DNA of 64,000 bases. Origin: Nitrospirota bacterium. Its GTDB lineage: Bacteria > Nitrospirota > UBA9217. The position numbers were made by a program, and so were the translations under genes. The notes beneath the pieces were generated by a model. The model had not been told where the DNA came from, searched no databases, and saw only the letters and a list, made by a program, of their open reading frames with translations. The first letter of the stretch is position 1. Each line of letters opens with the position of its first letter. Positions 22,982 through 56,754 of this stretch are shown here, in pieces. Location: assembly GCA_963741205.1 (NCBI GenBank), contig CAVUHW010000026.1, positions 317,395 to 381,394 on the forward strand, given 5' to 3'.

Positions 22982-23870
22982 CTACTCCAGGAACCTGCTC
23001 ACCGAGACCAGACCTCCCGCCAGACCCAGCAGGCCGCCCCCTGCAACGATATATGCTACCACCGAAGGAGGCAAAAAGTCCAGGCCGTTCGCCTGGGACA
23101 GGAAGAGCACGACATCGTGCGGCAGCAGCGAATACAGCACCGCGAGGATGCCGACCGCAAGGGCCGAGCCGAGCACGGCGAGGAGCATGCCCTCGATCAG
23201 GAAGGGGACCTGGATGAACGCGCGCGTCGCCCCGATCCATTGCATCAGTTCTATCTCCTGTCCCCGCGAGTACAGCGCCAGCCTGACCGAGTTGGAGATA
23301 ATAAACACGACGGAAACGCCGAGCAGGAACGCCAGGGCCGTGCCGCCGTAGGCAAGGAGCTTGTAGAGGCGGATATCACCGCCGCCCCCTGCTTTCCGTA
23401 GGTCACGTCCTCCACGCCGGCGATAGGCTGAAAATTTCTTCGCCATGGCCTCAAGCCGGTCCGCCTCGGCAAAACGGCGGTCGATTTTCAGCTCGAAGGA
23501 ATCGGGGAGCGGGTTTTCACCCAGGCCGTCGACGAGCGCCTCCCGGCCCTTCAGCCCTTTCTTGAACAGGGCGAGCGCCTCGGCCTTGGAAAGCAGAACG
23601 GCCTGTCTTACGGCCGGTTCCGCCTTGAGCCTGCGGAGGAGAAATTCCTTCTCGTGCTCCGTCAAGCCGTCCTTCAGGTACACCGACATCTCGAGCCGGT
23701 CTTCCAGGCTGTTTACCGCCGAGCCGGACATTGAAAAAAACGATCAGGAAAAATCCGACGATGAGCATGGCCATGCTGATGGTGCCGACGGCAAGAAGGT
23801 TCACCATGCTGTTGGCGCGGAGTCCGCGGAAGGCCTCCGCTATGAAAAAGAACGGGCCATACCCTCTCAC
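22982..23870 (-). CDS. ftsX: cell division permease FtsX (frameshifted)
   Basis: GENPLPDSFE; ISNSVRLALYSRGQEIELMQWIGAT; PFLIEG; N-terminal TM in the overlapping ORF 23517..23870. Confidence 0.88.
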
Positions 23871-24611
23871 GATTCCCCCTCATGCGGCGAAGCGGCGCTT
23901 CCGCCCTCTCCCGGCTTCGCCGAAAGCCGCGGGGCGGGCTTCGCCGAAGCCTGCCGGCCGTCGTCGATCACCCTTCCCTTCTCCATGGTAATGATCCTTC
24001 GCTGCATCTTTCTCACCGTCTCCCAGTCATGGGTCGCCACGAGCACCGTCGTGCCTTTCAGGTTAATCTCCCGGAAGAGGCGGAACACCTCCTGGGCGCT
24101 CTGCTGGTCCAGATTGCCGGTGGGCTCGTCCGCAAGGAGCACCTGCGGTTCGTTCACGAGCGCGCGGGCCACGGCCACCTTCTGCTGCTCCCCGCCCGAG
24201 AGCTTGGGAGGCGTGAGGTGCGCTTTGTCCTGCATGCCTACCTTCTTGAGCACGGACAAGGCCCTCCGTTCGATCTCTCCGTAGGGCGTGCCGACGACAC
24301 TTGAGCGCCAGGGCGATATTTTCGAAGATGGTCTTGCGGGGGAGGAGTTTGTAATCCTGGAACACGAAGCCCATGTTTCTGCGAAGGTAAGGAATGCTCG
24401 AGGCTTTGAGACGAAAGGTGCTCAACCCCTGGATGATGATCTGCCCTTCATCGGCATGTTCCGCGCAGAAGATGATCTTGAGGAGGGTGGTCTTCCCCGC
24501 TCCGGAGAGGCCGGTGACAAACACAAACTCGCCCTTGTCCACGCTGAAGCTCACGTCGGAGAGGGCGGGAACGCCCTCATAGTATTTGGTCACCCGGTAG
24601 AGTTGAATCAT
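23867..24611 (-). CDS. ftsE: cell division ATP-binding protein FtsE (frameshifted near 24265-24295)
   Basis: GLSGAGKTT; IPYLRRNMGFVFQDYKLL; LSGGEQQ; ADEPTGNLD. Confidence 0.9.
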
Positions 24612-24737: not shown

Positions 24738-25658
24738 TCACTTCACCGCCGCCGCGATATGCTCCGCCGAGATGCCGTAGTGCCTGAGAAGGCCTTCGTG
24801 GTCGCCGGAGGTCCCGAAGGAGTCCTTGATCCCGACGCGCACCATTGGAGCCGGCGCCGATTCGGCAAGCACCTCGGCAACGGCGCCGCCCAGGCCGCCG
24901 ATGATCGAATGCTCTTCCGCCGTTACGATGGCGCCCGACTGCCTCGCCGCCTTGATCACGGCCTCGGCGTCGATGGGCTTGATCGTGGACATGTTGATCA
25001 CGCCGGCCTCGATCCCCTCCGCCTTGAGCAGGTCCCGGGCCTTGATCGCCTCGGCGACCATAAGGCCCGTGGCAATGATTGCCGCGTCCTTGCCTTCGTT
25101 GAACACGTGGGCCTTGCCGATCTTGAACCGGTAGTCGGCGCCGAAGAGCGTGGGCACCTTGTTGCGACCCACGCGCACGTAGCAGGGGCCCTTGTGCTCG
25201 GCCACCGCCTCGATGGCCTGCAGGGTCTCGGGGCCGTCCGCCGGAACGATCACCGTCATGTGCGGGATCACCCGCATCACGGCGATGTCCTCGACCGACT
25301 GGTGCGAGCCGCCGTCCTCGCCTACGGTGATGCCGGCGTGGCTCGCCACGATTTTGACGCTCAGGTTCGGATAGCAGATCGACTGCCGCACCTGCTCCCA
25401 GGCCCTGCCCGTTGCAAAGACCGCAAAGGTGCTTACGAAAGGCAGTTTGCCCGCGATCGCGAGCCCGGCCGCGGTGCCCATCATGTCCTGTTCAGCGATA
25501 CCGATATTGAAAAACCTGTCCGGGAACGCCTTGGCGAATTTAGAGGTCTTCGTCGAACCCGAAAGGTCCGCGTCCAGCACCACCACGTCTTCTCTTTTTT
25601 TACCGAGGCTGACCAGCGCATCCCCGTATGCATCCCGTGTCGCGATCTTTGTCACCAT
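24738..25658 (-). CDS. transketolase, C-terminal (pyrimidine-binding) subunit
   Basis: LDADLSGSTKT; GIAEQ; GEDGGSHQ; EEHSIIGGLG. Confidence 0.93.
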   Translation of the reverse strand: MVTKIATRDAYGDALVSLGKKREDVVVLDADLSGSTKTSKFAKAFPDRFFNIGIAEQDMMGTAAGLAIAGKLPFVSTFAVFATGRAWEQVRQSICYPNLSVKIVASHAGITVGEDGGSHQSVEDIAVMRVIPHMTVIVPADGPETLQAIEAVAEHKGPCYVRVGRNKVPTLFGADYRFKIGKAHVFNEGKDAAIIATGLMVAEAIKARDLLKAEGIEAGVINMSTIKPIDAEAVIKAARQSGAIVTAEEHSIIGGLGGAVAEVLAESAPAPMVRVGIKDSFGTSGDHEGLLRHYGISAEHIAAAVK

Positions 25659-25675
25659 TACCCCCATATAGACTG

Positions 25676-25763
25676 ACGCGGTGATTCGGCGACGGGGAGA
25701 CGTCGAGAAAAAGACCGAAACAACCCGGCTCTCCGCGTCCATCTGCTCCCCCTTCTCCGCGTC
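25676..25763. repeat. ~8-mer periodic inverted-repeat element (GACGCGG/CCGCGTC type)
   Basis: gacgcggtgattcggcgacggggagacg ... ctccgcgtccatctgctccccttctccgcgtc. Confidence 0.6.
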
Positions 25764-25765
25764 CG

Positions 25766-26605
25766 TTATTTACACACTGCCTCTTCCAGTTCCTTCACCG
25801 CAATCGCGAGTTCTTCCTTCGACGGCGTCGTGCCGTGGAACTCCACTTTGCCTTCGAATACCTTGGAGCCTTTGCCCTTGACGGTGCGGCAGACGATCAT
25901 GACGGGCTTCCCTTTTACCGTCTCGGCCTTGTCGAGTGCGGCGACGAGCTGCTCCATGTCGTGGCCGTCGACATCGAAGACCTCCCAACCGAACGCGCGC
26001 CACTTGTCAACGATCGGCTCCACGCCCATCACCTTCGCCACGGGCCCGTCGATCTGAAGCCCGTTGTTGTCCACGAGCGCACAGAGGTTGTCGAGCTTGT
26101 AATGGGCCGCCGTCATGGCCGCTTCCCATACCTGCCCTTCCTGGAGTTCTCCGTCTCCCAGGAGCGCGTATACGCGGTTCGGCGTCTTGTCGAGCTTGTG
26201 CGCGAGCGCGATCCCGTTCGCAACGGACAGGCCCTGGCCGAGGGACCCCGTGGAGATCTCGACTCCCGGCACGTACTTGCTGTCCGGGTGCCCCTGGAGG
26301 CGGGAGCCGAGCTTTCTGAGCGTGCAGAGCTCCGCGTGCTCGATAAACCCGGCGTGGGCCAGCACGGTATACAAGAGCGGCGCGGCATGTCCCTTCGAGA
26401 GGATGAAATGGTCCCGGCCCTTCCAGTCGGGCTTCTTCGGATCGTACTTCATCTTATAGAAGTACAGGGCCGTCGCGATATCGGCGGCCGAGAGACTGCC
26501 GCCCGTGTGGCCGGAGCCGCAGTCGGTCAGCATCTTCAGGATGTCGATCCGGACCCTCTTTGCCTTGTCCTTCAGGGTCTTCAATTGCTCTTCACTAACT
26601 GGCAT
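25766..26605 (-). CDS. transketolase, N-terminal (TPP-binding) subunit
   Basis: SGHTGGSLS; LSKGHAA; LQGHP; TGSLGQG; GDGELQEG..WEA. Confidence 0.93.
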   Translation of the reverse strand: MPVSEEQLKTLKDKAKRVRIDILKMLTDCGSGHTGGSLSAADIATALYFYKMKYDPKKPDWKGRDHFILSKGHAAPLLYTVLAHAGFIEHAELCTLRKLGSRLQGHPDSKYVPGVEISTGSLGQGLSVANGIALAHKLDKTPNRVYALLGDGELQEGQVWEAAMTAAHYKLDNLCALVDNNGLQIDGPVAKVMGVEPIVDKWRAFGWEVFDVDGHDMEQLVAALDKAETVKGKPVMIVCRTVKGKGSKVFEGKVEFHGTTPSKEELAIAVKELEEAVCK

Positions 26606-26671
26606 GCACCAAACCTCCTGATTGAATAACCGTAGAGTGGGGTCTTGCTGCGTCACATCGAGAACAGAAAA

Positions 26672-28685: not shown

Positions 28686-30128
28686 TTACATGGTTGCAGT
28701 AGGGGTTTCACGGATCATAGAAGCATGCAGTCCCTGGGTAGTTCCCAAGGCGTGTCTTATCTGCTTCTCCCCGTGCGTAACTTCGGCCGGTTCCCGGCCT
28801 AGTGTTTCCTTCTTCCTTAACCGCATGGCGCGTTTGTGATGCTTTACGGCAATTTCGCCGGACACAAGCATTTCTATGCCGCGCTTCTTGATAACGAGAG
28901 ACGCATTGGTATCGGCGTTTTCCGTAAAGCCACAGCTCTGGCAATCGAACACCGCCTGTGACTGGCGGTTGTCCGGGTGAGTGTGCGAACACTTCGAACT
29001 CTCCTGTGAGGTGCCGTGCGGCGGTATGGCGATAACGAGCTTGTTGCGTCGTGAGGCTTTATACATGGTAAAGAGTTTTACCTTGCCCCACGCTGATTCG
29101 AGTATGGACTTGTTGAGACCGGCCTTGGCCTTTGCCCCGTTCGCAATATACGTCCCGCCGGCTGACTTCTTCGGCTTTGGCGCTCTGGTCATGTTCTTGA
29201 CCTTGAGGTCCTCGAAGACGAACACCTCCGCGGGTGAATCCACGAGCTTGCGGCTGGCCTTATGCGCGAAATCATGCCTCACATTGGCAGCATACACCTG
29301 GCAACGGGCTGATTTCGCAGCTAATTGCTTAAAGCGGCCGGATCCTTTGATCCGCCTCGCCAATTGCCTCTGATATCTCTTCTTCCGGGCATCCTTTTTT
29401 ACCAGTCGCTCTTTTTGGATGCCGGAGAAGTCATGCACCGAGCCGTCGCTCGTTGCCAGCGGGATTACAACCCCTCGGTCCATTCCCAGGGTAACGGTAT
29501 TGAGACTCTCTGATGACATGCCGCCGTAAAGCTCGAGAAGTTCCTGCTCGCTCAAAACTGTGCCTTGCTTCTCATAGGAGAACGAGACATACCATTTCCC
29601 GGACTCCCGGGAAATGGTGATAGCCGCCGGAATTTCGTACTCATCATGAGCCTTGAACTTAAGTTCGCCCAGATCGACCGACTTTGTGCCAAGCATCAGC
29701 CGGTGCTCATATATTGTTTTGTCCTGCCGCTGTTTTGAGCCTCCAGTAGGAACGAACCTGAATAGCTCGCTGGTAATCCAGACGGACTGCCGTCCAGCCT
29801 TCTTTTTATAAGCAGGGCGACCAGCCAGTCCTGTCAGGTACCTCTTGTAGGAGCCCATGAACCTGGTTGCGCCGTTCCTTAGGATCTGAGACGGCACATC
29901 GTATAAAAACGGAGTGAGTTCCTTGTCCTTGAACTGGGAGTACTGCTGATCAATCGGCGGCTGTAGTCCGGTTAGCGACAGTGAGTGATTCCGGAATGTT
30001 CGGAAATAACGCTCCTCGGCAACCTTGGCGTTGTAGATAAACCGCTGGCAGCCCATCCACTGCGCGAGAATATCGGACTGCTCCGTTGTCGGGTAGCAAC
30101 GGAATTTTATGCCGCTTGAAATCGCCAT
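28686..30128 (-). CDS. tnpB: RNA-guided endonuclease TnpB
   Basis: KFRCYPT HTH; RuvC motifs GMDRG, FEDL, NADTNA; zinc finger ESSKC..CQSC. Confidence 0.93.
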   Translation of the reverse strand: MAISSGIKFRCYPTTEQSDILAQWMGCQRFIYNAKVAEERYFRTFRNHSLSLTGLQPPIDQQYSQFKDKELTPFLYDVPSQILRNGATRFMGSYKRYLTGLAGRPAYKKKAGRQSVWITSELFRFVPTGGSKQRQDKTIYEHRLMLGTKSVDLGELKFKAHDEYEIPAAITISRESGKWYVSFSYEKQGTVLSEQELLELYGGMSSESLNTVTLGMDRGVVIPLATSDGSVHDFSGIQKERLVKKDARKKRYQRQLARRIKGSGRFKQLAAKSARCQVYAANVRHDFAHKASRKLVDSPAEVFVFEDLKVKNMTRAPKPKKSAGGTYIANGAKAKAGLNKSILESAWGKVKLFTMYKASRRNKLVIAIPPHGTSQESSKCSHTHPDNRQSQAVFDCQSCGFTENADTNASLVIKKRGIEMLVSGEIAVKHHKRAMRLRKKETLGREPAEVTHGEKQIRHALGTTQGLHASMIRETPTATM

Positions 30129-30129
30129 A

Positions 30130-30266
30130 TTTCTAATATAGGTGATGAATCCTGATAGTGCAACTAAATAAAACGCTGCAGCCATCAGCCTATATTATAA
30201 GATTGCAGTATCGTTTTTAGTAGCACAAACAATGGCACGAATCCACGCCCAAAACAGTCCGCTTGA
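30130..30266 (+). pseudogene. internally deleted tnpA remnant
   Basis: Resembles the 5' part (tatattataagattgca vs tatataatcaggctaca) and 3' end (ccgcttga) of tnpA at 56311..56754. Confidence 0.6.
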
Positions 30267-37406: not shown

Positions 37407-37886
37407 ATGATGCCCTGCCTCGAAATCAAACACACGCTCTTCGGCGATGCGAAAACCTATTCGTGCGAGTTGCTGCAGTACGAGCCGGGCTTCGGCATGC
37501 TGCGGTACATCGTCGACCGCGAGTACGACATCAGCGGGCACAGACTCCTGCCGGGTGACGTCACCCATGCCCTGTACTGGGAAGACCGGCCGTACACGCT
37601 GTACGTCTGGGACCCGCGCAGCGGGGGCGGCAGGCTCTGCTACTTCAATATCGCCGACTCGGTATCGCTCCGGCCAGAGGAATTCGTCTGGCGAGATCTG
37701 GCAATCGATGTCCTGATCGACGCGGCAGGCCGCATCGATATCCTGGATGAACACGAACTCCCGCCGGATCTGCCGCAGGAACTACGGGTATATATAGGAG
37801 CAGCCGTGGACCTTGTCGTTGATCAGCATCAGAAGATCATCAGCGAGGCGAATGAGCAGATCAGGCGGGTCAGTCGCGGCGCGTGA
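37407..37886 (+). CDS. DUF402 domain protein
   Basis: YFNIAD; WRDLAIDVLI; ILDEHEL. Confidence 0.8.
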   Translation: MMPCLEIKHTLFGDAKTYSCELLQYEPGFGMLRYIVDREYDISGHRLLPGDVTHALYWEDRPYTLYVWDPRSGGGRLCYFNIADSVSLRPEEFVWRDLAIDVLIDAAGRIDILDEHELPPDLPQELRVYIGAAVDLVVDQHQKIISEANEQIRRVSRGA

Positions 37887-37914: not shown

Positions 37915-38016
37915 TCGCAAAGAAGGATACGGCTTACTTCTGATTTTAAAATCCAAGAATTGAATCTTTTGATTTAAGTCAGGTTTTCCTTTGCGACCTC
38001 TGCGTCTTTGCGAGAA
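37915..38016. repeat. 9-mer periodic inverted-repeat element (CGCAAAG/CTTTGCG)
   Basis: tcgcaaag ... ctttgcgacctctgcgtctttgcgaga. Confidence 0.65.
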
Positions 38017-38071
38017 AATTTCTTGCCATTTGAGTAGAATTTCATTCTTAGTTACTAAAGATTTCCCTGCG

Positions 38072-39440
38072 TCACACCGCCTGGTCGTGCTCCGCCGCTT
38101 CCTCGATGCGAGACGCAAGCCGCGCTATGGATGCCCAGTCATGAACCGCGATGTCCTGGGAGTGGGCGAGATTGTTGCGGAGCGATTCGAGCTCTTTAAC
38201 GACCCCTCTGGCGATGTTCTTCGACGGAAAACCGAACGCCCGCAGCATCTCGGGCCGCTCGATGAGGATCTGCGCCTTGTCCGACAGCTGCAGGCATTTG
38301 AGCAGGCCGCTGTGCTGCCCTCTTCGCTCCCGCTCCCGCTGCAGCGCCTGCGCCTTCTGCAGCCTGCCCTCCGACATCAGCTTCTGCCATGCTCCGCCCG
38401 GGAAGTACTGTTCGATCAGGCGAGTCACGAGCATCTCGGCCATCGTGACGATCCCGAAGAGCCACATGCGGGCAACGGGCGAATTGAGGCTGACCCGGCC
38501 TGCGGCGCCTGCCACCTCTCCGAGCACCGTTACGAAGACATGCTCGTTCACGGTCAGCGATCTGACGAGCATTGTGAGCGAGCCGTCGCCGGGAACGACC
38601 TGGCCGGGACGGATACCGGCGAAGATGCTCGCCGCAGCTCCCTGCGCCGAGGTCGCCCCGCCGCACATAGCCGGCGATTGCACCCTGGTCCCGCAGGACG
38701 GCCACATCAAGGGACCGTTCGTCCAGTATGCGGCGGACCGCGGCAGAGGGTTCGTCGAGGCCGAAGGACAGGACCGGCTGGGACACGTCAAGGACCGTGA
38801 AGGCCTCCCGCAAAAGCCGGATCAGATGCGGCGGTATCGCTTCATCCTTCCAGACGGCAATGGCCGACGGGTCGTGACCCGGTTGCTGCAGGGCCTCCGG
38901 ATCGAGGCGACCGGAACACTCCGCATGGGCTGCCACGGCCTTTTCATAAAGCCGGGCGTCCCCTTCCTGCAGCACATCGAGCAGGTCCCTCATCTCCGCC
39001 AGATAGACCCGTGCGAACTTCTGGTCGTTGCGGCATATGTCCTGACAGTTGTCAATCAGGTCCGCGAGCTTAACCGTCTTGGCGGCCGGAGCCGCCGAGG
39101 CGAGATGCTGCAGGTCCTTGCCCTTACGGGCGGCCCGGTTGCCGTCTGCCGGCCTGCTCACGTCCGTCAGCGATTCCACGAGCTCCGCCACGGGGCGTCC
39201 GAACTCGCGCTCCACATCCTCGAGCGTGCAGGGGGTGTCCTCAACAACATCGTGAAGCCAGGCAGCGGCCAGCGTCGCGGGATCATCGGTCACCGTTGCC
39301 ACGAGCTCCGCCACGTTCTCGAGATGCACTGCGTAGGGCAGGCTGGTGTATTTCCTCCGGTGCATGATGCGAGAGTGCTCATGTACCGCAAAATCCCTTG
39401 CCCGCTGTACCAGTTCGTCCATATTCGTCCGCTCCATCAA
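38072..39440 (-). CDS. HD (Mesh1/SpoT-like) + CBS-like + HEPN-like fusion protein (frameshift near 38616)
   Basis: RKYTSLPYAVH; WLHDVVEDT; VKLADLIDN; central CBS-like region; C-terminal LESLRNNLAHSQD (RxxxxH). Confidence 0.8.
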
Positions 39441-39551: not shown

Positions 39552-40463
39552 TCAGATACTCCAGATTATTCCCCGCTCTTCAAGAAACCTCTGTACTTCC
39601 GCCGGCCGCGGGATTCCCGCCCGTCCGCCCACCTTCATGCACTTCATTGCGGCGACGGCCGATGCAAACCGGACAGTGGCTTCGAGGCTCCATTTGAGGA
39701 GCAGCCCGTAGATGTACCCGCCGTGGAATACATCGCCGGCGCCCGTCGTATCTCTTGTCTCGACGGGAAAAGCGGGAATGACGATGACATTGCCGTCGGC
39801 ATAGGTCACGCTTCCCCGCGCTCCCAGCGTGATCGTCGTGGTGCCGAAGCCGTGATTTTTGATTTTCGGTTTGAATTGAGCAGCGTCGCCGCTCCAGCCC
39901 AGTTCGCGGGCGAATTCCTCCGACCCGACCACATAATCGCATAAGCGGGCGAGCTCCAGCATCCCGTCCCGCACGCGTCCCGCGTCAAGCATGACGGGAA
40001 TTCCGGCCTCTTTGGCCTTCTGTGCGGCAAAGAGCGATACGTCCTTCATCAGGCCGTCGAGGAGCAGAAAATCCGCGCCTTCCAAAAAATCCTGCGAAAG
40101 CTCTTCCGGACTGAGCGGCTCGCCTGAAGGCCGTTTCCAGAAAATCGTTCGTGTCGCGGCGGACTTTTCAATCGCGATAAATGCCGTCTGGGACGAGGCA
40201 TGAGCCCTCGTGACCAGCCCGGAGACATAGACCCCTTCCTCGCGCAGGGACTGCCGGATGGCCGCGCCTTCCCGGTCGTCTCCTATGACACCGTGAAACC
40301 GGCAGGCCACACCGAAACGCGACAGGGTCGCCAGGGCCGTTGCCACCGGCCCCCCTCCCTGCTCTTCCCAAAGCAGGACCTCTTTTTTCGTATCCGGCTG
40401 TGGAAACGAATCGATCACTGCTAACAGGTCCCACGCGCATTGTCCGATGCCCACAACAGCCAT
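39552..40463 (-). CDS. PfkB family carbohydrate kinase
   Basis: GGGPVATA; ITLGARGS; DTTGAGDVFHGG. Confidence 0.93.
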   Translation of the reverse strand: MAVVGIGQCAWDLLAVIDSFPQPDTKKEVLLWEEQGGGPVATALATLSRFGVACRFHGVIGDDREGAAIRQSLREEGVYVSGLVTRAHASSQTAFIAIEKSAATRTIFWKRPSGEPLSPEELSQDFLEGADFLLLDGLMKDVSLFAAQKAKEAGIPVMLDAGRVRDGMLELARLCDYVVGSEEFARELGWSGDAAQFKPKIKNHGFGTTTITLGARGSVTYADGNVIVIPAFPVETRDTTGAGDVFHGGYIYGLLLKWSLEATVRFASAVAAMKCMKVGGRAGIPRPAEVQRFLEERGIIWSI

Positions 40464-40968: not shown

Positions 40969-41379
40969 CTATTTCCGGCCTGCCTTATCACGCTGGGTGA
41001 CAGCCTGCTTCTGCACGATGCTCTGAAGCGGCTCCGCCGGACTTTTCAGCATGGCAAGCAGATTGATGGAGAGAACGAATTTCCCTGCCTCTTCCCGCCG
41101 CACCTGCTGGTAGAAATCGCACATCTCGCAGTTATGGTACTTCTGGGCGAAGGACCCCTGTTCCTTTCCCCCGCACAATGTGCCCCCGACGACCCAACAC
41201 GCCCTTCCCGCATTCTTCCCCCCGTGAATCCCCTCCAGCCTCATCTCAATGGCGGTCGGACAGACGCCGAATTCCTCGATCTTCTTCCCACCCGGCTCTC
41301 TCCCGCATTGCTTGGCTTCCCAGCAGTTTAATTTCTTCACTGAACGCCCCTCCCCGGAAATGAGATAAACGTAATCCAT
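40969..41379 (-). CDS. Cys-rich two-CW-type domain protein
   Basis: KLNCWEAKQCGRE..CP..GRACWVVGGTLC..CEMCDFY; start may be the GTG near 41342. Confidence 0.75.
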   Translation of the reverse strand: MDYVYLISGEGRSVKKLNCWEAKQCGREPGGKKIEEFGVCPTAIEMRLEGIHGGKNAGRACWVVGGTLCGGKEQGSFAQKYHNCEMCDFYQQVRREEAGKFVLSINLLAMLKSPAEPLQSIVQKQAVTQRDKAGRK

Positions 41380-43317: not shown

Positions 43318-44172
43318 TTATCCCGGTCTGTCGGAATTTTTTTTCGCCGGATCCCGGAGCATGGCGTTGATATCGATCTGTTCGTATCTCTCCCTTCTCC
43401 AACGGTACGGCAGATCGAGGATCGTGGCCGGCTCTTGTATCGTGTACAGCGCCCGCAACGCCTCCGCCAGCACGACGCGCTGCTGCGCAGTATGAAACGG
43501 CTCGCCGAACGGATGGCCGAACGGCCATCGCAGAAAGACGGTCCGGGGAGGTTTGACCTTCTCCGAATACGCCCGCACGATCGACACGCCGATCGTGGGG
43601 ATTCCCGCTTTCTCTATTTCCCGCTGTATCAATCCCACGGATTGATTGCAAATGCCTCATCCGGGCGTCAGGAGCACGAAGTCTACCTTGTCGTTTTTCA
43701 GGGCTTGTGCGATCTCCGGCGCGATCTTGCTGATGAGCGTATCCATGTGCCTGCCGACAATATGCCCCATGAACCCGTAATGCACGTCAGCGAGGCGCCC
43801 GATGAGCCCTTCCCGTTCGAACTCCTTCAGTCTTTCCACCGGGAAAACAACGTTAATGTCCTTGTCTGCATCGGAATGATCGTAGTAATCGTGGGTGATC
43901 ATGAGGCTCGACGGGTTTTTTTTAAGATCGATGATCCTGTACGAAGGATCGCCGTCGCGGTCTTTCATGTCGAAGGGCTCCTGGTCCCTGTGATGCACAC
44001 CCGCCGTCGTCACGAGCGCTATCGTCGCCTTATGCAGGGGTTTCGTTACCGGGGTCCAGGGAACGTCGACTGCTTTCCACGGCTCGTACGAGGCAATAAA
44101 CCTTTTAGCGAGCGAGGGAAACCGCGTAATAATCCTTGCGATCAGCCGGTTTTTTAATCTGTCGATGCCCAC
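43318..44172 (-). CDS. glycine/betaine/sarcosine/D-proline reductase selenoprotein B-like protein (Sec at UGA 43657-43659)
   Basis: IALVTTAGVH; HDYYDH..DINVVFP; HYGFMG; LLTPG-U-GIC-NQSVGLIQREIEKAGIPT; the two ORFs are in frame across one TGA. Confidence 0.88.
43628..43646 (-). promoter_or_regulatory. bacterial SECIS-like hairpin
   Basis: mRNA AUCAAUCC-GUG-GGAUUGAU; stem begins 10 nt after the UGA; G first in the apical loop. Confidence 0.75.
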
Positions 44173-44259
44173 GTGTCCTCACGTCCTGGAACCTCTCGGG
44201 GTCGGGACCCCCGAGGGTCAGGTCTATAATGTTTACACCCGTCTTACCCTAAGATGTTC

Positions 44260-44664
44260 TTAGACAGTACAACACTCAACGATGATCTGAGGCACATTCC
44301 GGAAGTGGCTATCCGTGGTAATCAGTTTGAGGCCGTACTGCATGGCCGTTGCCGCGATCCAGAGGTCGCTTGTCGGCAGGGGCGTCCCCTTCGACCAGAG
44401 ATAGGTGATGATCGCCGTGTACCGTTCCGCCGTTTCTTCATCGATAACGGCGACCTGCACGCGCGGCGATGTTAGAAATTCCCTGACGATATCCCTGTTC
44501 CTTTTTTCCCTGCCGCCGCGGGCGAAACCGGCATAGAGTTCGCCAAGCACGACCGGGTTCAGGTAAATTTCATCAGCTTCCCGCAGCGCCTGCGTTACCT
44601 CCGCGTTTCCCCTGAGGAATGCGGAGTAAGCAGAGGTGTCGAGCATTACTTTGATTTTTTCCAT
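44260..44664 (-). CDS. vapC: VapC family PIN toxin
   Basis: LDTSAYS; VVLGELYAG; SDLWIAATA; TTDSHF. Confidence 0.92.
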   Translation of the reverse strand: MEKIKVMLDTSAYSAFLRGNAEVTQALREADEIYLNPVVLGELYAGFARGGREKRNRDIVREFLTSPRVQVAVIDEETAERYTAIITYLWSKGTPLPTSDLWIAATAMQYGLKLITTDSHFRNVPQIIVECCTV

Positions 44665-44918
44665 AGCTCCGCGTCCACTTTCCGTTGGGCCTTCAGGTTC
44701 TTGTCGAACTCTGCCGCTTCCTCCCGCGACCACAGGCCGGCCAGGTGGTCCAGATCGGTGTAAAGAACCCGCTTCTTCGCTTCCGGGGCATTCGCCCCCA
44801 CAGCCCGTTCGAGGAGCGAAATTATCGCTTTGTTCAAGCTCACGCCCTTCTGAGCGGCCTCTTTCTGCACCGTCTTTTTGACCTTGTCGGGAATGCTGCG
44901 AATGGTAATCTGCTTCAT
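44646..44918 (-). CDS. antitoxin (FitA/RHH-like)
   Basis: MKQITIRSIPD..AAQKGVSLN; overlaps the toxin start. Confidence 0.82.
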   Translation of the reverse strand: MKQITIRSIPDKVKKTVQKEAAQKGVSLNKAIISLLERAVGANAPEAKKRVLYTDLDHLAGLWSREEAAEFDKNLKAQRKVDAELWKKSK

Positions 44919-45117
44919 GATTCCGCCTCCCCGTGACTCACTCGTGCTTCACCATGACTCTATTATTGCAGCATAGTTTACGAAAGTCAATGAAGAAGGC
45001 GGTGTCCGGCCGGAAGTGTGCCCCTCCTTTGCAAATACACGAAAAGCAAAAGAGCGGAATCAAACATGATAGACCTGCCCCTGAGATGTGCCTGGAAAAT
45101 AACATCTTGTTATATTG

Positions 45118-48899: not shown

Positions 48900-49988
48900 C
48901 TATACATTAAACCTGAAATTGATGATATCTCCGTCCTTTACTTCATAGGTCTTTCCCTCGAGTTTGAAATGCCCTTTTTCCCGTGCTGCATGCGTACTGC
49001 CGGTGGCAATAAAATCATCATAGGAAACGACCTCTGCCCGTATAAAACCTCTCTCGATATCCGAATGTATCCTGCCTGCCGCCTGCTGCGCATTCATGCC
49101 CTTTTCTATGGTCCAGGCCCTGACCTCGTCTTCACCGGAGGTCAAAAAAGATATCAGCCCGAGCAGGTCATACGAAACACGGATAAGCTTATTAAGCGCA
49201 GGTTCATTAATGCCGAGGTCGTCAAGAAAAACCTTCGCCTCCGTCGGGAGAAAGCTGGGCTATTTCCATCTCGATCTTTCCGCACATGCTCAACACCTTC
49301 ACCTGCCGCCCTTTGAAAATATGCCTGAAGATCAGCGACCGTCTTCCCTGTTGCTTCCGAATTCACTTCCTGTTCAGCAACGTTCAGCACAATGACCTCG
49401 GGCCTGATGGACATGAACTGCAGATGGCGCATGGCCTTCCGGTCATCCTCGGAAAAATCCGCGTCCCTCAGCGGCTTCTCGGATTCCAATACCTCCTTGC
49501 ATTTCAGCAAAAGCTTTTTCTCGCTCTCATCAGGCTTCTTTCCCCGCTTCATGCCCAGCTCCATCCGCTCAAGTCTTTTTTCAACAAGTTCCAGATCGCT
49601 GAAGACCATCTCCAGTTCGATCGTCTCGGCATCCCGCTGCGGGTCAACGTTGCCCATGCGGATGGGGCACTGCTTCGTTCTCAAAACCCCGCACAACATG
49701 GACAATGGCGTCTACGTCCTTGACCAGGTCAAACACCTTCCTGTTCTGCTCCATGTCGCCCTTTGTCAGTCCGATATAATCAACATACTCAACCGTTGCA
49801 TAGGTGGTCTTCTTCGGCTTGTATATCTCCGAAAGCCTGTCGACCCTGATGTCCGGCACCTTCACGACGCCATGATGAGGTTCTGCTGTCACGGTCGCAT
49901 AGACCGTCGTCTCCAGATTCAGACCCGTCAGGGCATTAAATATCGTTGTCTTTCCTGAATTCGCAAGGCCGGTAATGGCTATCTTCAT
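48900..49988 (-). CDS. ychF: redox-regulated ATPase YchF (several frameshifts)
   Basis: GLANSGKTTIFNALT; VKVPDIRV; EVRAWTI; AGRIHSDIERGFIRAEV; DGDIINFRFNV. Confidence 0.92.
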
Positions 49989-55588: not shown

Positions 55589-56287
55589 CTAAATTGTATG
55601 AACAATTGTAGCGGGGGTTTCACGGTTCACAGAAGATTGCGGGACAAGAGCTATGCTCTTATCCCGTCTTACATGCTTCTCCCCGCGCATAACATCGGGC
55701 AGTTCCTGCCCTAGTGATGACTTTTTCTTTAACCGCATGGCCCGCTTTTTTTCTTTTACGGTGATTTCGCCGTCGATAAGCTTTTGTATCCCGCGCGTTT
55801 TAACCACGCGGGCAGCGTTTACGTCGGCGTTCTCCGTAAATCCGCAGTCTAAACATTCGAACATCGCCTGCGACAGGCGGTTGTCCGGGTGAGTGTGCCC
55901 GCATCGGGAACACTCCTGCGATGTGCCATGGGGATTTATTGCCAACACAAGCTTATTGAGTCTTTGAGCTTTATACGTGGTAAATAGCTTGACCTTGCCC
56001 CACGCCGAATCAAGGATGGCCTTATTGAGCCCCGCCTTTGCCCTGGCGCCATTCGGTTCATAAAGGAACGGGGTCAGGTCCCTGTCTTTGAATTGGGCAT
56101 ACTGCTGGTCGACAGGCACGTCGATGCCGGTACAAGACAGTGTCTTGTCCCGGAATTTACTGAAATACCGGTATTCTCCCACCTTGGCGTTGTAAATGAA
56201 CCTCTGGCAGCCCATCCATGCCGACAGCGCATTCGCCTGCGCAGCCGTAGGATAGCACCTGAATTTTACGCCGCTTGACAGTGCCAT
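55589..56287 (-). pseudogene. tnpB: TnpB with in-frame internal deletion of about 250 aa
   Basis: LTPFLY joined almost directly to NGARAKAGLNK; RuvC-I and RuvC-II motifs missing. Confidence 0.88.
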
Positions 56288-56310
56288 AAGACTATTGTAT
56301 ATTAGGTTGC

Positions 56311-56754
56311 ATGGAAAATCAACCAAATATATCATTGTCTCATGCTGTATATATAATCAGGCTACACATAGTATTCGTGACAAAATACCGGAGAAAGGTG
56401 CTTACCGGAGACATGCTCGAATACTTACGATCTGCCTTTACGGAGATCCTTTCCGGTTGGCGGTGCAGTCTTATAGAGTTTGGCGGCGAAGAGGATCATG
56501 TGCATCTTCTTGTCGACATACATCCTGCCCTTGATATTTCGTATTTGATAAACAATCTTAAATCGGCCAGCTCGAAGCGTCTTCGCCGTGTATATTCCGA
56601 CCACATAAATAAATTCTACTGGAAGCCTGTCCTGTGGCACAGAGCATATTACGTCGGCAGTGTTGGTAATGTCACCCTGGACGTCATTCGCAATTATATT
56701 GATCATCAGGGCACTTCGGAAAAAAACCCAACGCACCCGAAACCATCCGCTTGA
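56311..56754 (+). CDS. tnpA: IS200/IS605 family Y1 transposase
   Basis: HIVFVTKYRRKV; DHVHLL (HUH); LKSASS; YIDHQ. Confidence 0.95.
   Translation: MENQPNISLSHAVYIIRLHIVFVTKYRRKVLTGDMLEYLRSAFTEILSGWRCSLIEFGGEEDHVHLLVDIHPALDISYLINNLKSASSKRLRRVYSDHINKFYWKPVLWHRAYYVGSVGNVTLDVIRNYIDHQGTSEKNPTHPKPSA

Follow-up and report, generated by a model that had tools for sequence, protein, structure and literature searches.

The gene at positions 38072 to 39440, on the minus strand of a 64,000-nucleotide stretch of a Nitrospirota bacterium genome (contig CAVUHW010000026.1, assembly GCA_963741205.1; the whole stretch is hereafter called the window), is a chromosomal, stand-alone member of a widespread family of three-domain proteins. 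In these proteins an N-terminal HD domain, predicted to hydrolyze alarmones, is followed by a CBS pair and a C-terminal HEPN domain predicted to cut RNA. The window gene is an ordinary member of this family, which was described in 2013 as a prediction. Its reading frame is split in the assembly by one extra base, probably an artefact. Taken as a whole, our best explanation, which joins the family identity, the origin of the break and a gated-ribonuclease mechanism, has in our judgement a little less than an even chance of being correct.

Two overlapping open reading frames (ORFs) were found on the minus strand at this locus, 38196-39440 (414 aa) and 38072-38791 (239 aa). The true frame consists of the first ~275 residues of the 414-aa ORF and the last 179 residues of the 239-aa ORF. 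In a three-frame translation, the first frame is sensible up to '...GEHLRRY' and the next frame from 'RPGQVVPGDGSL...' to the stop. The two pieces tile one protein in which a single residue is absent at the join, and this residue corresponds to a conserved F/Y column in 33 intact homologues, whose sequence at the break position is HLRR[F/Y]RPGQ. Joining the pieces gives 274+1+179 = 454 aa. An earlier note, made from the sequence alone, had joined the two ORFs by removing one base near 38616 and had predicted a protein of ~455 aa; the site proved correct to within 1-4 bases and the length to within one residue. Furthermore, all the motifs named there (RRKYTSLPYAVH, LHDVVEDT, KLADLIDN and LRNNLAH) were recovered and are nearly invariant in the family. 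Since the best homologues of the window protein reach E 1e-87, the feature is not due to chance. The coordinates are collected in Table 1.

Table 1. Parts of the HD-CBS-HEPN gene and two other genes with broken frames in the window
Feature	Position	Strand	Basis or remark
Whole gene, HD-CBS-HEPN protein of ~454 aa	38072..39440	minus	read in two frames, one extra base
Candidate starts	TTG 39440, ATG 39437	minus	
Stop	38072-38074	minus	
N-terminal piece, first frame, 274 aa (HD, helical linker, first CBS motif)	38616..39437	minus	76% identity to homologue P0003 (33-homologue alignment)
C-terminal piece, second frame, 179 aa + stop (second CBS motif, HEPN)	38072..38611	minus	79% identity to P0003
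Break, TATC (plus strand GATA) in place of a single F/Y codon	38612..38615		homologue alignment
RSH-type HD core, residues 14-138 of the 414-aa ORF	39027..39401	minus	Pfam HD_4 PF13328
HDxxED catalytic motif, H63 D64...E67 D68 of the ORF	39237..39254	minus	aligned to Mesh1 HD..ED; nearly invariant
CBS pair (Bateman module), spans the break	38483..38831	minus	Foldseek on the P0003 model
HEPN-like all-helical domain, 137 aa	38075..38485	minus	Pfam HEPN_Swt1 sub-threshold, AlphaFold2 domain model, VIA-align
Rx4H motif RNNLAH (R codon 38177-38179, H codon 38162-38164)	38162..38179	minus	R and H invariant in alignments
ftsE-type ABC ATPase, split at ~24297	23873-24611	minus	adjoins ftsX 22985-23743; likely assembly indel
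ychF-type GTPase, three frame segments = two frameshifts	48903-49982	minus	local tblastn frames -3/-1/-3

The homologues are encoded as single genes. In species genomes (one genome per species), the candidate stretches numbered 600, of which at least 564 could be confirmed, and 80 of these loci were kept for counting. Both motifs fell within one ORF at 79/80 genome loci, and the fused form was present at 60/80 metagenome loci. Homologues consistently split into two separate genes, a possibility raised in the earlier note, were thus not what we observed. These counts also bear on a programmed +1 frameshift or slippage during transcription. As such a reading would have it, the two frames run open through the break, but there is neither a slippery run nor an in-frame stop, and the contig of a close relative described below lacks the extra base. 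Because the protein is encoded in one frame at so many genome and metagenome loci, programmed frameshifting is effectively excluded.

We consider it most likely that the extra base is an assembly indel error. A Pfam scan of the 144 stop-to-stop frames of at least 100 aa between 20000 and 56500 revealed further frame breaks nearby, an ftsE-type ABC ATPase gene and a ychF-type GTPase gene both being in pieces. In the ftsE-type gene, profile positions 1-80 and 79-136 lie in different frames, and orthologues map by local tblastn to window frames -3/-1, switching at the split given in Table 1; in same-genus genomes ftsE is an intact frame of 248-252 aa. Similarly, the N- and C-terminal domains of the ychF-type gene lie in separate frames in the Pfam scan. 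The ychF-like gene of same-genus genomes forms intact frames of 381-387 aa that are 35-55% identical to it, and given this identity the window gene may be a paralogue. In total, there are 4 frame breaks in 3 genes inside 36 kb, two of these genes being near-universal, and this is the signature of an indel-prone assembly. In addition, a 311-nt contig of the public run X2 spans 38549-38860 with 11 substitutions and omits one letter at 38614; when these substitutions are applied, the frame is whole again and has an F codon there. The public runs were compared as contigs, not reads, and none of them contains more than 0.29 of the sampled words. Of the four runs aligned, X2 alone has a contig across the break. 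Apart from the break, we found no defect in the window copy in comparison with the 33 homologues. It retains 135 of the 138 positions that are at least 90% conserved, the three exceptions being the break residue, an F-to-L change and a D-to-G change common to the closest relatives.

Some observations weigh against an artefact. The case for it draws on a single bridging contig, which comes from a relative and not from reads of the source sample, and the extra base lies outside any homopolymer run. The gene is also absent from 14/14 same-genus genomes searched and found in 1/24 family genomes, where the match is a fragment at a contig end, and its G+C content is 64.4% against 55.7% for the window. 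Together with a TnpB gene and a TnpB-like fragment within the window, these points would suit a true pseudogene, that is, a horizontally acquired copy recently inactivated by a real extra base. However, a second defect is missing and the near-invariant residues are kept, the sole bridging contig does not have the extra base, and the three further frameshifts in two nearby housekeeping genes are hard to explain except by assembly error. A pseudogene is in our view unlikely, and the window "frameshift" is best treated as an assembly error, along with at least three others nearby. Since the extra base is a likely assembly indel, the organism probably makes the intact protein.

The N-terminus is, by its sequence, an RSH-superfamily HD hydrolase of the small alarmone hydrolase (SAH) kind, and hydrolysis is predicted. 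Pfam HD_4 (PF13328) matched the window ORF with E 6.6e-15 (55.6 bits vs a cut-off of 27.2) and the homologue P0003 with 61.4 bits. Sequence matches in the PDB included fly Mesh1 (3nqw, E 6e-18), human MESH1 and Rel/SpoT hydrolase domains, as well as bacterial SAHs at E 1e-6 to 1e-9. The R-K, H, HD, ED, D and N residues, which we take to be the metal-binding and catalytic residues with roles known from the Mesh1 literature, align with the Mesh1 positions; the 33 homologues show hardly any variation at them, and the window copy has them all. For the fold we used an AlphaFold2 (AF2) model of P0003, for which the alignment had 68 rows (pLDDT 94, pTM 0.90), and on this model the fold values for this domain were measured. 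In Foldseek, the HD domain of P0003 superposed on Mesh1 (3nqw, 3nr1, 5vxa and 9chy) with TMt 0.81-0.84 and a root-mean-square deviation (rmsd) of 2.3-2.6 Å, and on the bacterial SAHs 7qoc (RelH), 6yvc (PaSAH) and 7qoe (Leptospira SAH) with TMt 0.75-0.79. Pfam, PDB sequence matches and fold thus agree with the Mesh1/SpoT-like HD domain that had been proposed for this gene.

The fusion protein contains no synthetase domain. It also falls outside the definition of a stand-alone SAH as a single-domain protein with the hydrolase domain only (Atkinson et al. 2011), in that ~270 residues (CBS pair and HEPN) follow the HD domain. NCBIfam has no dedicated model for it and returns a fragmentary spoT_relA match (74.6 vs a 499-bit cut-off); this accounts for some public records in which the proteins are misnamed "bifunctional (p)ppGpp synthetase/hydrolase". 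In IMG/VR, the best 80 of 432 relatives are viral ORFs with lengths of 158-232 aa and 49-60% identity to the HD part. As these best 80 are all stand-alone SAHs, the HD domain is closest to phage-type SAHs. In sequence it is thus nearest to phage stand-alone SAHs, at 52-60% identity, and to Mesh1, and the closeness to phage SAHs is new here.

The middle of the protein is a CBS pair according to the model, and ligand binding is predicted. The AF2 model of P0003 has two tandem beta-alpha-beta-beta-alpha units, and Foldseek matched them to CBS pairs with probability 1.0 (2ef7, TMt 0.66; 1y5h, 0.70; 5ks7, 0.68; 3fv6, 0.64). The fold matches of this region include OpuCA-CBS bound to c-di-AMP. Furthermore, a profile of members without the HD domain matched PDB CBS proteins at E 2e-4 to 0.03. 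Pfam speaks less clearly, and here the evidence runs against the assignment: CBS (PF00571) gave no match to the window pieces at E<=0.1. The homologue P0170 scored 20.4 bits, below the 24-bit cut-off, and a precomputed PF00571 match exists on P0110 only. Overall, the fold supports the central CBS-like region that had been noticed in the letters. Three PDB chains named "CBS domain-containing protein" (9zni_6, 9zni_7 and 9zng_7, 274-281 aa) matched the first CBS motif only and are therefore not family members.

The C-terminus carries an invariant Rx4H motif and is assigned to the HEPN domains of the Swt1/Abi2 group; endoribonuclease activity is predicted. The R and H of RNNLAH are invariant in 68/68 aligned sequences (19 of them without HD), in 69/69, and in 39/39 HD-less sequences, and positions F, G, E, R, C and D outside this motif are invariant in the 68-sequence alignment too. 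Loss of the motif among homologues, which the earlier note had named as something that would refute its reading, was therefore not found. Pfam HEPN_Swt1 (PF18731) scored 29.5 bits on the HD-less relative P0161, above its cut-off, 23.5 on P0170 and 18.2 on P0133, and precomputed matches exist on P0084 and P0117. The HEPN domain alone (window 38075-38485) gave an AF2 model with pLDDT 87.6. Its top VIA-align match was PbAbiF (8vz6_B, Z 8.1, rmsd 3.5 Å over 132/137 residues, 12% identity), and the lower rows contained the HEPN toxin 7ae2 (Z 7.0), AbiA (6.4), Cas13bt3 (6.1), the Csm6 chains 8jbc and 4rgp (5.8 each), SO_3166 (5.5), 5yep (5.5), 8xdj (5.3), the HEPN protein 2hsb (5.3), the yeast Swt1 C-terminal domain (5.1) and sacsin HEPN (4.9).

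Three results count against this assignment. The window piece matched HEPN_Swt1 with E 3.3e-4 and 21.4 bits, under the 27.5-bit cut-off. Foldseek of the HEPN domain alone returned nothing from the PDB at E<=1e-3, HEPN toxins appearing at E ~4, and a VIA-align Z of 8.1 is within reach of unrelated helical bundles by common arrangement. As for how the C-terminal domain models, the best structural match is indeed a HEPN protein, but its Z score lies in the helical-bundle range. The assignment is thus carried by the motif and the Pfam matches, and the fold is supportive, not proof. On this footing the HEPN-like domain with LRNNLAH stands, with conserved Rx4H, HEPN_Swt1 matches and AbiF as the best structural match. 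A homodimer prediction for CBS-HEPN (P0003 residues 197-447, two copies) scored 0.01 vs a mark of 0.42 and has no bearing either way.

The family is large and taxonomically broad. When the C-terminal 189 aa were searched among longer proteins, 551 matches were obtained at E<=1e-3, and the 120 of these that were listed are all 397-484 aa long and all carry PF13328. An exhaustive search with P0003 yielded 485 representatives at E<=1e-30. Family proteins typically measure ~445-475 aa and have three domains. Nitrospirae metagenome-assembled genomes (MAGs) are closest among the matches listed, with 57-66% identity to P0003; other carriers are many sulfur-oxidizing Gammaproteobacteria, Accumulibacter, Propionivibrio, Desulfobulbus and Desulfomicrobium (Desulfobacterota), Geomonas limicola and Shewanella canadensis. 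At a single one of the 80 genome loci, on a Nitrospiraceae MAG chromosome (CP070788.1), the match ends at residue 325/447; this copy may be truncated or frameshifted.

The CBS-HEPN core also exists without the HD domain, in many representatives of 250-275 aa and in Atlas clusters of up to 3,625 members. In a quick tree of the CBS-HEPN part, one branch (SH-aLRT 99) parts 17 HD-less sequences from 49 fused and 2 HD-less ones, a topology that fits a single HD fusion event as far as such a sequence tree can indicate. No neighbouring HD_4 gene was present at the HD-less metagenome loci with flanks (0/14; six more HD-less-looking loci cut by contig ends were set aside). At two of these 14 loci, which belong to one lineage (L092 and L093, with a shared upstream PGI gene), a 190-aa PF01966 HD gene lies directly downstream of CBS-HEPN. 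Its product and the C-terminal region of the CBS-HEPN-HD fusion P0196 share 49% identity (E 1e-60). The pairing of the CBS-HEPN core with a second, unrelated HD type, a "Rosetta stone" case read from sequence, is new here. P0196 (466 aa) has RNNLPY instead of RNNLAH and is an outlier outside the invariant alignments; its RNase may therefore be dead. Two further variants were found. P0145 (860 aa) continues after HD-CBS-HEPN with a PAS and a histidine-kinase ATPase domain. In the metagenome relative L096 (2828-4288, plus strand), an N-terminal GNAT domain replaces HD before CBS-HEPN in a 487-aa frame with a provisional start codon, and the gene is located between pta and ackA. The core is thus recurrently coupled to phosphohydrolases, through the HD_4 fusion branch and the second HD type.

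The mechanism that we propose is as follows. The CBS pair would bind a purine nucleotide and thereby gate the HEPN endoribonuclease, and the HD domain would take the pyrophosphate off the ribose-3' position of alarmones of the (p)ppGpp or (p)ppApp type, thereby ending the signal. RNA turnover would thereby be coupled to the stringent or starvation state, in a setting of housekeeping stress physiology rather than phage defence. We infer this combination of a CBS-gated HEPN RNase with a signal-ending HD domain tentatively, as a possible mechanism that we hold to be clearly short of probable. The self-limiting logic, in which the HD domain would degrade the very signal that the CBS pair senses, is a plausible element of it. 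The organism's own genome, which is 84.5% complete, contains one long Rel (synthetase and HD, 717-aa frame) and no small synthetase was found in it; because Rel is the only synthetase found, (p)ppGpp is the likeliest HD substrate. Other points weigh against the proposal. The RNase activity, ligand and RNA target of the family are predictions only, and a single molecule serving as both CBS ligand and HD substrate is an assumption. Moreover, HD-less CBS-HEPN proteins are common, and the RNase module therefore needs no in-cis hydrolase.

The main rival to the signal-hydrolase reading holds that the HD domain acts not on a free signal but on the 3' ends of RNA. These would be the 2',3'-cyclic or 3'-phosphate ends that the HEPN cut leaves, or else pyrophosphorylated tRNA CCA ends. 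The protein would then be a CBS-regulated enzyme that cuts RNA and processes or repairs the ends. The second HD partner of CBS-HEPN is in line with this, its PDB relatives being the HD domains of CCA-adding/poly(A) polymerase enzymes (3wfo, E 3e-6). The HD domains of CCA enzymes have 2',3'-cyclic phosphodiesterase and phosphatase activities. The GNAT domain in place of the N-terminal HD, seen at the single locus L096, and the identity of the present HD domain to phage stand-alone SAHs are further points in favour. MESH1 and ATfaRel take the 3' pyrophosphate off tRNA, and the authors of that work propose RSH hydrolases to be RNA 3'-phosphatases (preprint 10.1101/2021.04.30.441581); in another report, a phage PaSpo SAH neutralized all tested toxSAS (PMC7229694). 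However, activity on RNA ends is not known for this subfamily, the second-HD pairing comes from one lineage plus one fusion protein, and that fusion, P0196, is the one whose RNase may be dead. We regard action on RNA 3' ends as rather unlikely.

A broader form of this idea makes the CBS-HEPN core itself an RNA 3'-end-directed module, possibly for tRNA, whose interchangeable partners (a phage-like PaSpo SAH, a CCA-type HD and, at one locus, a GNAT) would all work on ribose-3' ends. HD-CBS-HEPN might then cut RNA and remove the 2',3'-cyclic or 3'-(pyro)phosphate under nucleotide control, or alternatively it might sense and reverse tRNA pyrophosphorylation. We think this quite improbable, whichever of these forms it takes; if true, HD-CBS-HEPN would combine RNA damage and repair in one chain, as a switch linked to the stringent response.

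Alternatively, the hydrolase could be the output. The CBS pair and the HEPN domain would sense nucleotides or RNA and switch the HD domain, with HEPN binding RNA or a nucleotide without cutting. Some HEPN domains are non-catalytic sensors, as the 2013 survey infers for eukaryotic Swt1 (PMC3710099). The fusion of P0145 to PAS and a histidine-kinase ATPase fits signalling, and there is only one other alarmone hydrolase in the genome, within the long Rel. Against this, the invariance of the Rx4H R and H in fused and HD-less proteins is the pattern of active HEPN RNases, and since the motif persists in HD-less members, its conservation does not depend on a service to the HD domain. A hydrolase output is accordingly no likely account. 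We retain the gated RNase as the preferred mechanism.

We then considered the genomic context. The earlier note had pointed to a PfkB kinase gene (39552-40463, minus strand) and a DUF402 gene (37407-37886, plus strand) as neighbours handling nucleotides or phosphate. Both are present, but neither is kept at the 79 homologous loci, where Pfam found PfkB or DUF402 in 0/144 immediate neighbours. All-against-all ORF clustering revealed no conserved neighbour in the 80 genome loci. The largest non-overlapping neighbour cluster, an upstream Kef-type Na_H_Exchanger+TrkA_N gene, occurs at 8/80 loci and is lineage-level synteny only. The 144 neighbours are a lineage-dependent housekeeping mix comprising the Kef-type antiporter, phosphatidylserine decarboxylase, argininosuccinate synthase, DsrC/patatin, GlmU-like proteins, hybrid kinases, TIM and ValRS.

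This bears on a role in defence, which the earlier note had put forward. The protein would be a HEPN RNase of the abortive-infection or toxin-like kind, set off by a nucleotide such as (p)ppApp that a phage induces or a toxin makes. According to the 2013 survey (PMC3710099), defence toxins make up many of the HEPN families; moreover, the best structural match is AbiF, and the HD domain resembles phage SAHs that counter toxSAS (PMC7229694). Weak matches to PADLOC-DB 2.0 point the same way: the best one, PDC-M34B, reached E 5e-5 with P0161, 5e-4 with the window C-terminal piece and 0.0055 with P0003, and Csx1/Csm6 matched the HEPN part only (E 0.0095). However, E-values of 5e-5 to 0.0095 are modest, and the neighbourhood survey for synthetases and defence islands found none: no RelA_SpoT synthetase, MNT, cas gene or recognizable defence gene is among the 144 immediate neighbours, which are housekeeping genes and lineage variable, and no MNT nucleotidyltransferase lies beside the window gene. 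In a collection of 72,556 plasmid records, 0 of the 269 matching ones cover at least 80% of the protein, the matches being to the HD part, and no CBS-HEPN occurs in the best 80 of the 432 viral relatives. Because conserved neighbours and defence islands were not found, and plasmids and phages lacked the full fusion, a defence role is unsupported; we consider it very unlikely. The absence of a defence or mobile context for the full fusion is new here.

Several side observations were made in the window. Directly downstream of the gene, the intergenic stretch 37965-38035 belongs to a dispersed repeat. It has 25 matches in the genome of the organism itself, and five of these are nearly complete, with 89-100% identity. 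Many metagenome contigs match this repeat alone and then diverge, and it resembles an element of the REP (repetitive extragenic palindromic) or MITE (miniature inverted-repeat transposable element) kind. Two genes upstream, beyond PfkB, a 136-aa Cys-rich ORF (40969-41379, minus strand; CWEAKQCGRE and more Cys) had no Pfam match at E<=1e-4. The frame at 43660-44178 (minus strand) matches positions 201-345 of 347 only of the GRDB profile (glycine/sarcosine/betaine reductase selenoprotein B) and could encode a selenoprotein through an in-frame TGA, or else be one more broken gene. At 44263-44948 (minus strand), a PIN-domain toxin frame overlaps a FitA-like ribbon-helix-helix antitoxin frame, and the pair looks like a toxin-antitoxin system of the VapBC/FitAB type. 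The transketolase at 24741-26671 (minus strand) is present as two abutting genes (25769), one for the N-terminal, thiamine pyrophosphate-binding part and one for the pyrimidine-binding/C-terminal part, and looks like a natural split, not a frameshift. A full-length TnpB/IS605 OrfB-type gene with helix-turn-helix, OrfB_IS605 and Cas12f1-like TNB domains is located at 28689-30194 (minus strand), and a shorter TnpB-like frame without the middle domain at 55592-56356 (minus strand).

The architecture itself had been reported before. Table 1 of Anantharaman et al. (2013, Biol Direct 8:15; PMC3710099) lists "CBS and HD (alr3009), active" among the Swt1-like HEPN fusions, and the same survey gives a second HD-CBS-HEPN example from Pelobacter propionicus (gi 118580987). 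From purely computational work, it already proposed that nucleotides sensed by CBS domains control RNA degradation or stability. The architecture and the idea of a CBS-controlled RNase, both found in the earlier note, were therefore in print in 2013. The P. propionicus fusion is classed as a PaSpo SAH in a supplementary table of Atkinson et al. (2011), and the accessible portions of Atkinson et al. (2011) and Jimmy et al. (2020) make no mention of CBS or HEPN. We found no experimental work on the fusion in the full-text literature, whose coverage leaves out most subscription journals, and the 2013 survey was the only match in it for HEPN together with a CBS domain and an HD domain.

The family physically joins alarmone (ppGpp/ppApp) hydrolysis and HEPN ribonucleases, two fields that experiment has not linked. 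Should the nucleotide sensed by the CBS pair be the one that the HD domain destroys, a single protein would form a counterpart of the CARF-HEPN/ring-nuclease circuit in ordinary stress physiology, and it would link the stringent response to RNA decay by a new route. As there are cultured carriers (Shewanella canadensis HAW-EB2, Thiohalocapsa marina DSM 19078 and Geomonas limicola Red745), the question is directly testable.

We finally compared the window protein with known systems. It shares its three-domain architecture, and the idea of control by nucleotides, with the Swt1-like HEPN fusions of 2013. However, that survey, as far as its available text goes, speaks of an "HD phosphohydrolase" without a link to alarmones, and the likeness is one of architecture and not of an alignment with the window protein. 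With Mesh1 (3nqw, 3nr1 and 5vxa), the P. aeruginosa SAH 6yvc, the C. glutamicum RelH 7qoc and the phage enzymes PaSpo and PbcSpo, it shares HD_4, the catalytic residues and the fold. Unlike these single-domain SAHs, it adds the CBS and HEPN residues, and its substrate is predicted only.

Csm6 and Csx1, the CARF-HEPN proteins, follow together with ring nucleases the logic proposed here, in which a HEPN RNase is controlled by a ligand sensor and the signal is terminated by a hydrolase. The window protein differs in having a CBS pair rather than CARF and in lacking a CRISPR context, and the homology is at the superfamily level only. Furthermore, its proposed signal would be a linear 3'-pyrophosphorylated nucleotide, in contrast to the cyclic oligoadenylate of CARF-HEPN. 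PbAbiF (8vz6) represents the AbiF/Abi2-AbiD proteins, which the 2013 survey groups with Swt1-like HEPN (PMC3710099). AbiF is an abortive-infection dimer bound to noncoding RNA, without CBS or HD, and the window gene has no such RNA or defence context. Similarly, HEPN-MNT (HepT-MntA) shares Rx4H and probably the HEPN fold, with the structural matches 7ae2, 5yep and 8xdj. However, HEPN-MNT has an antitoxin, whereas the window family has no adjacent MNT among its 144 neighbours, and control would come from the in-cis domains.

A precedent for a CBS-pair protein acting with an RSH enzyme is the B. subtilis DarB-Rel complex (8acu), which is also among the PDB matches of the HD domain. The action of DarB on Rel depends on c-di-AMP. 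DarB is, however, a separate protein that acts on the long Rel, and a HEPN domain plays no part there.

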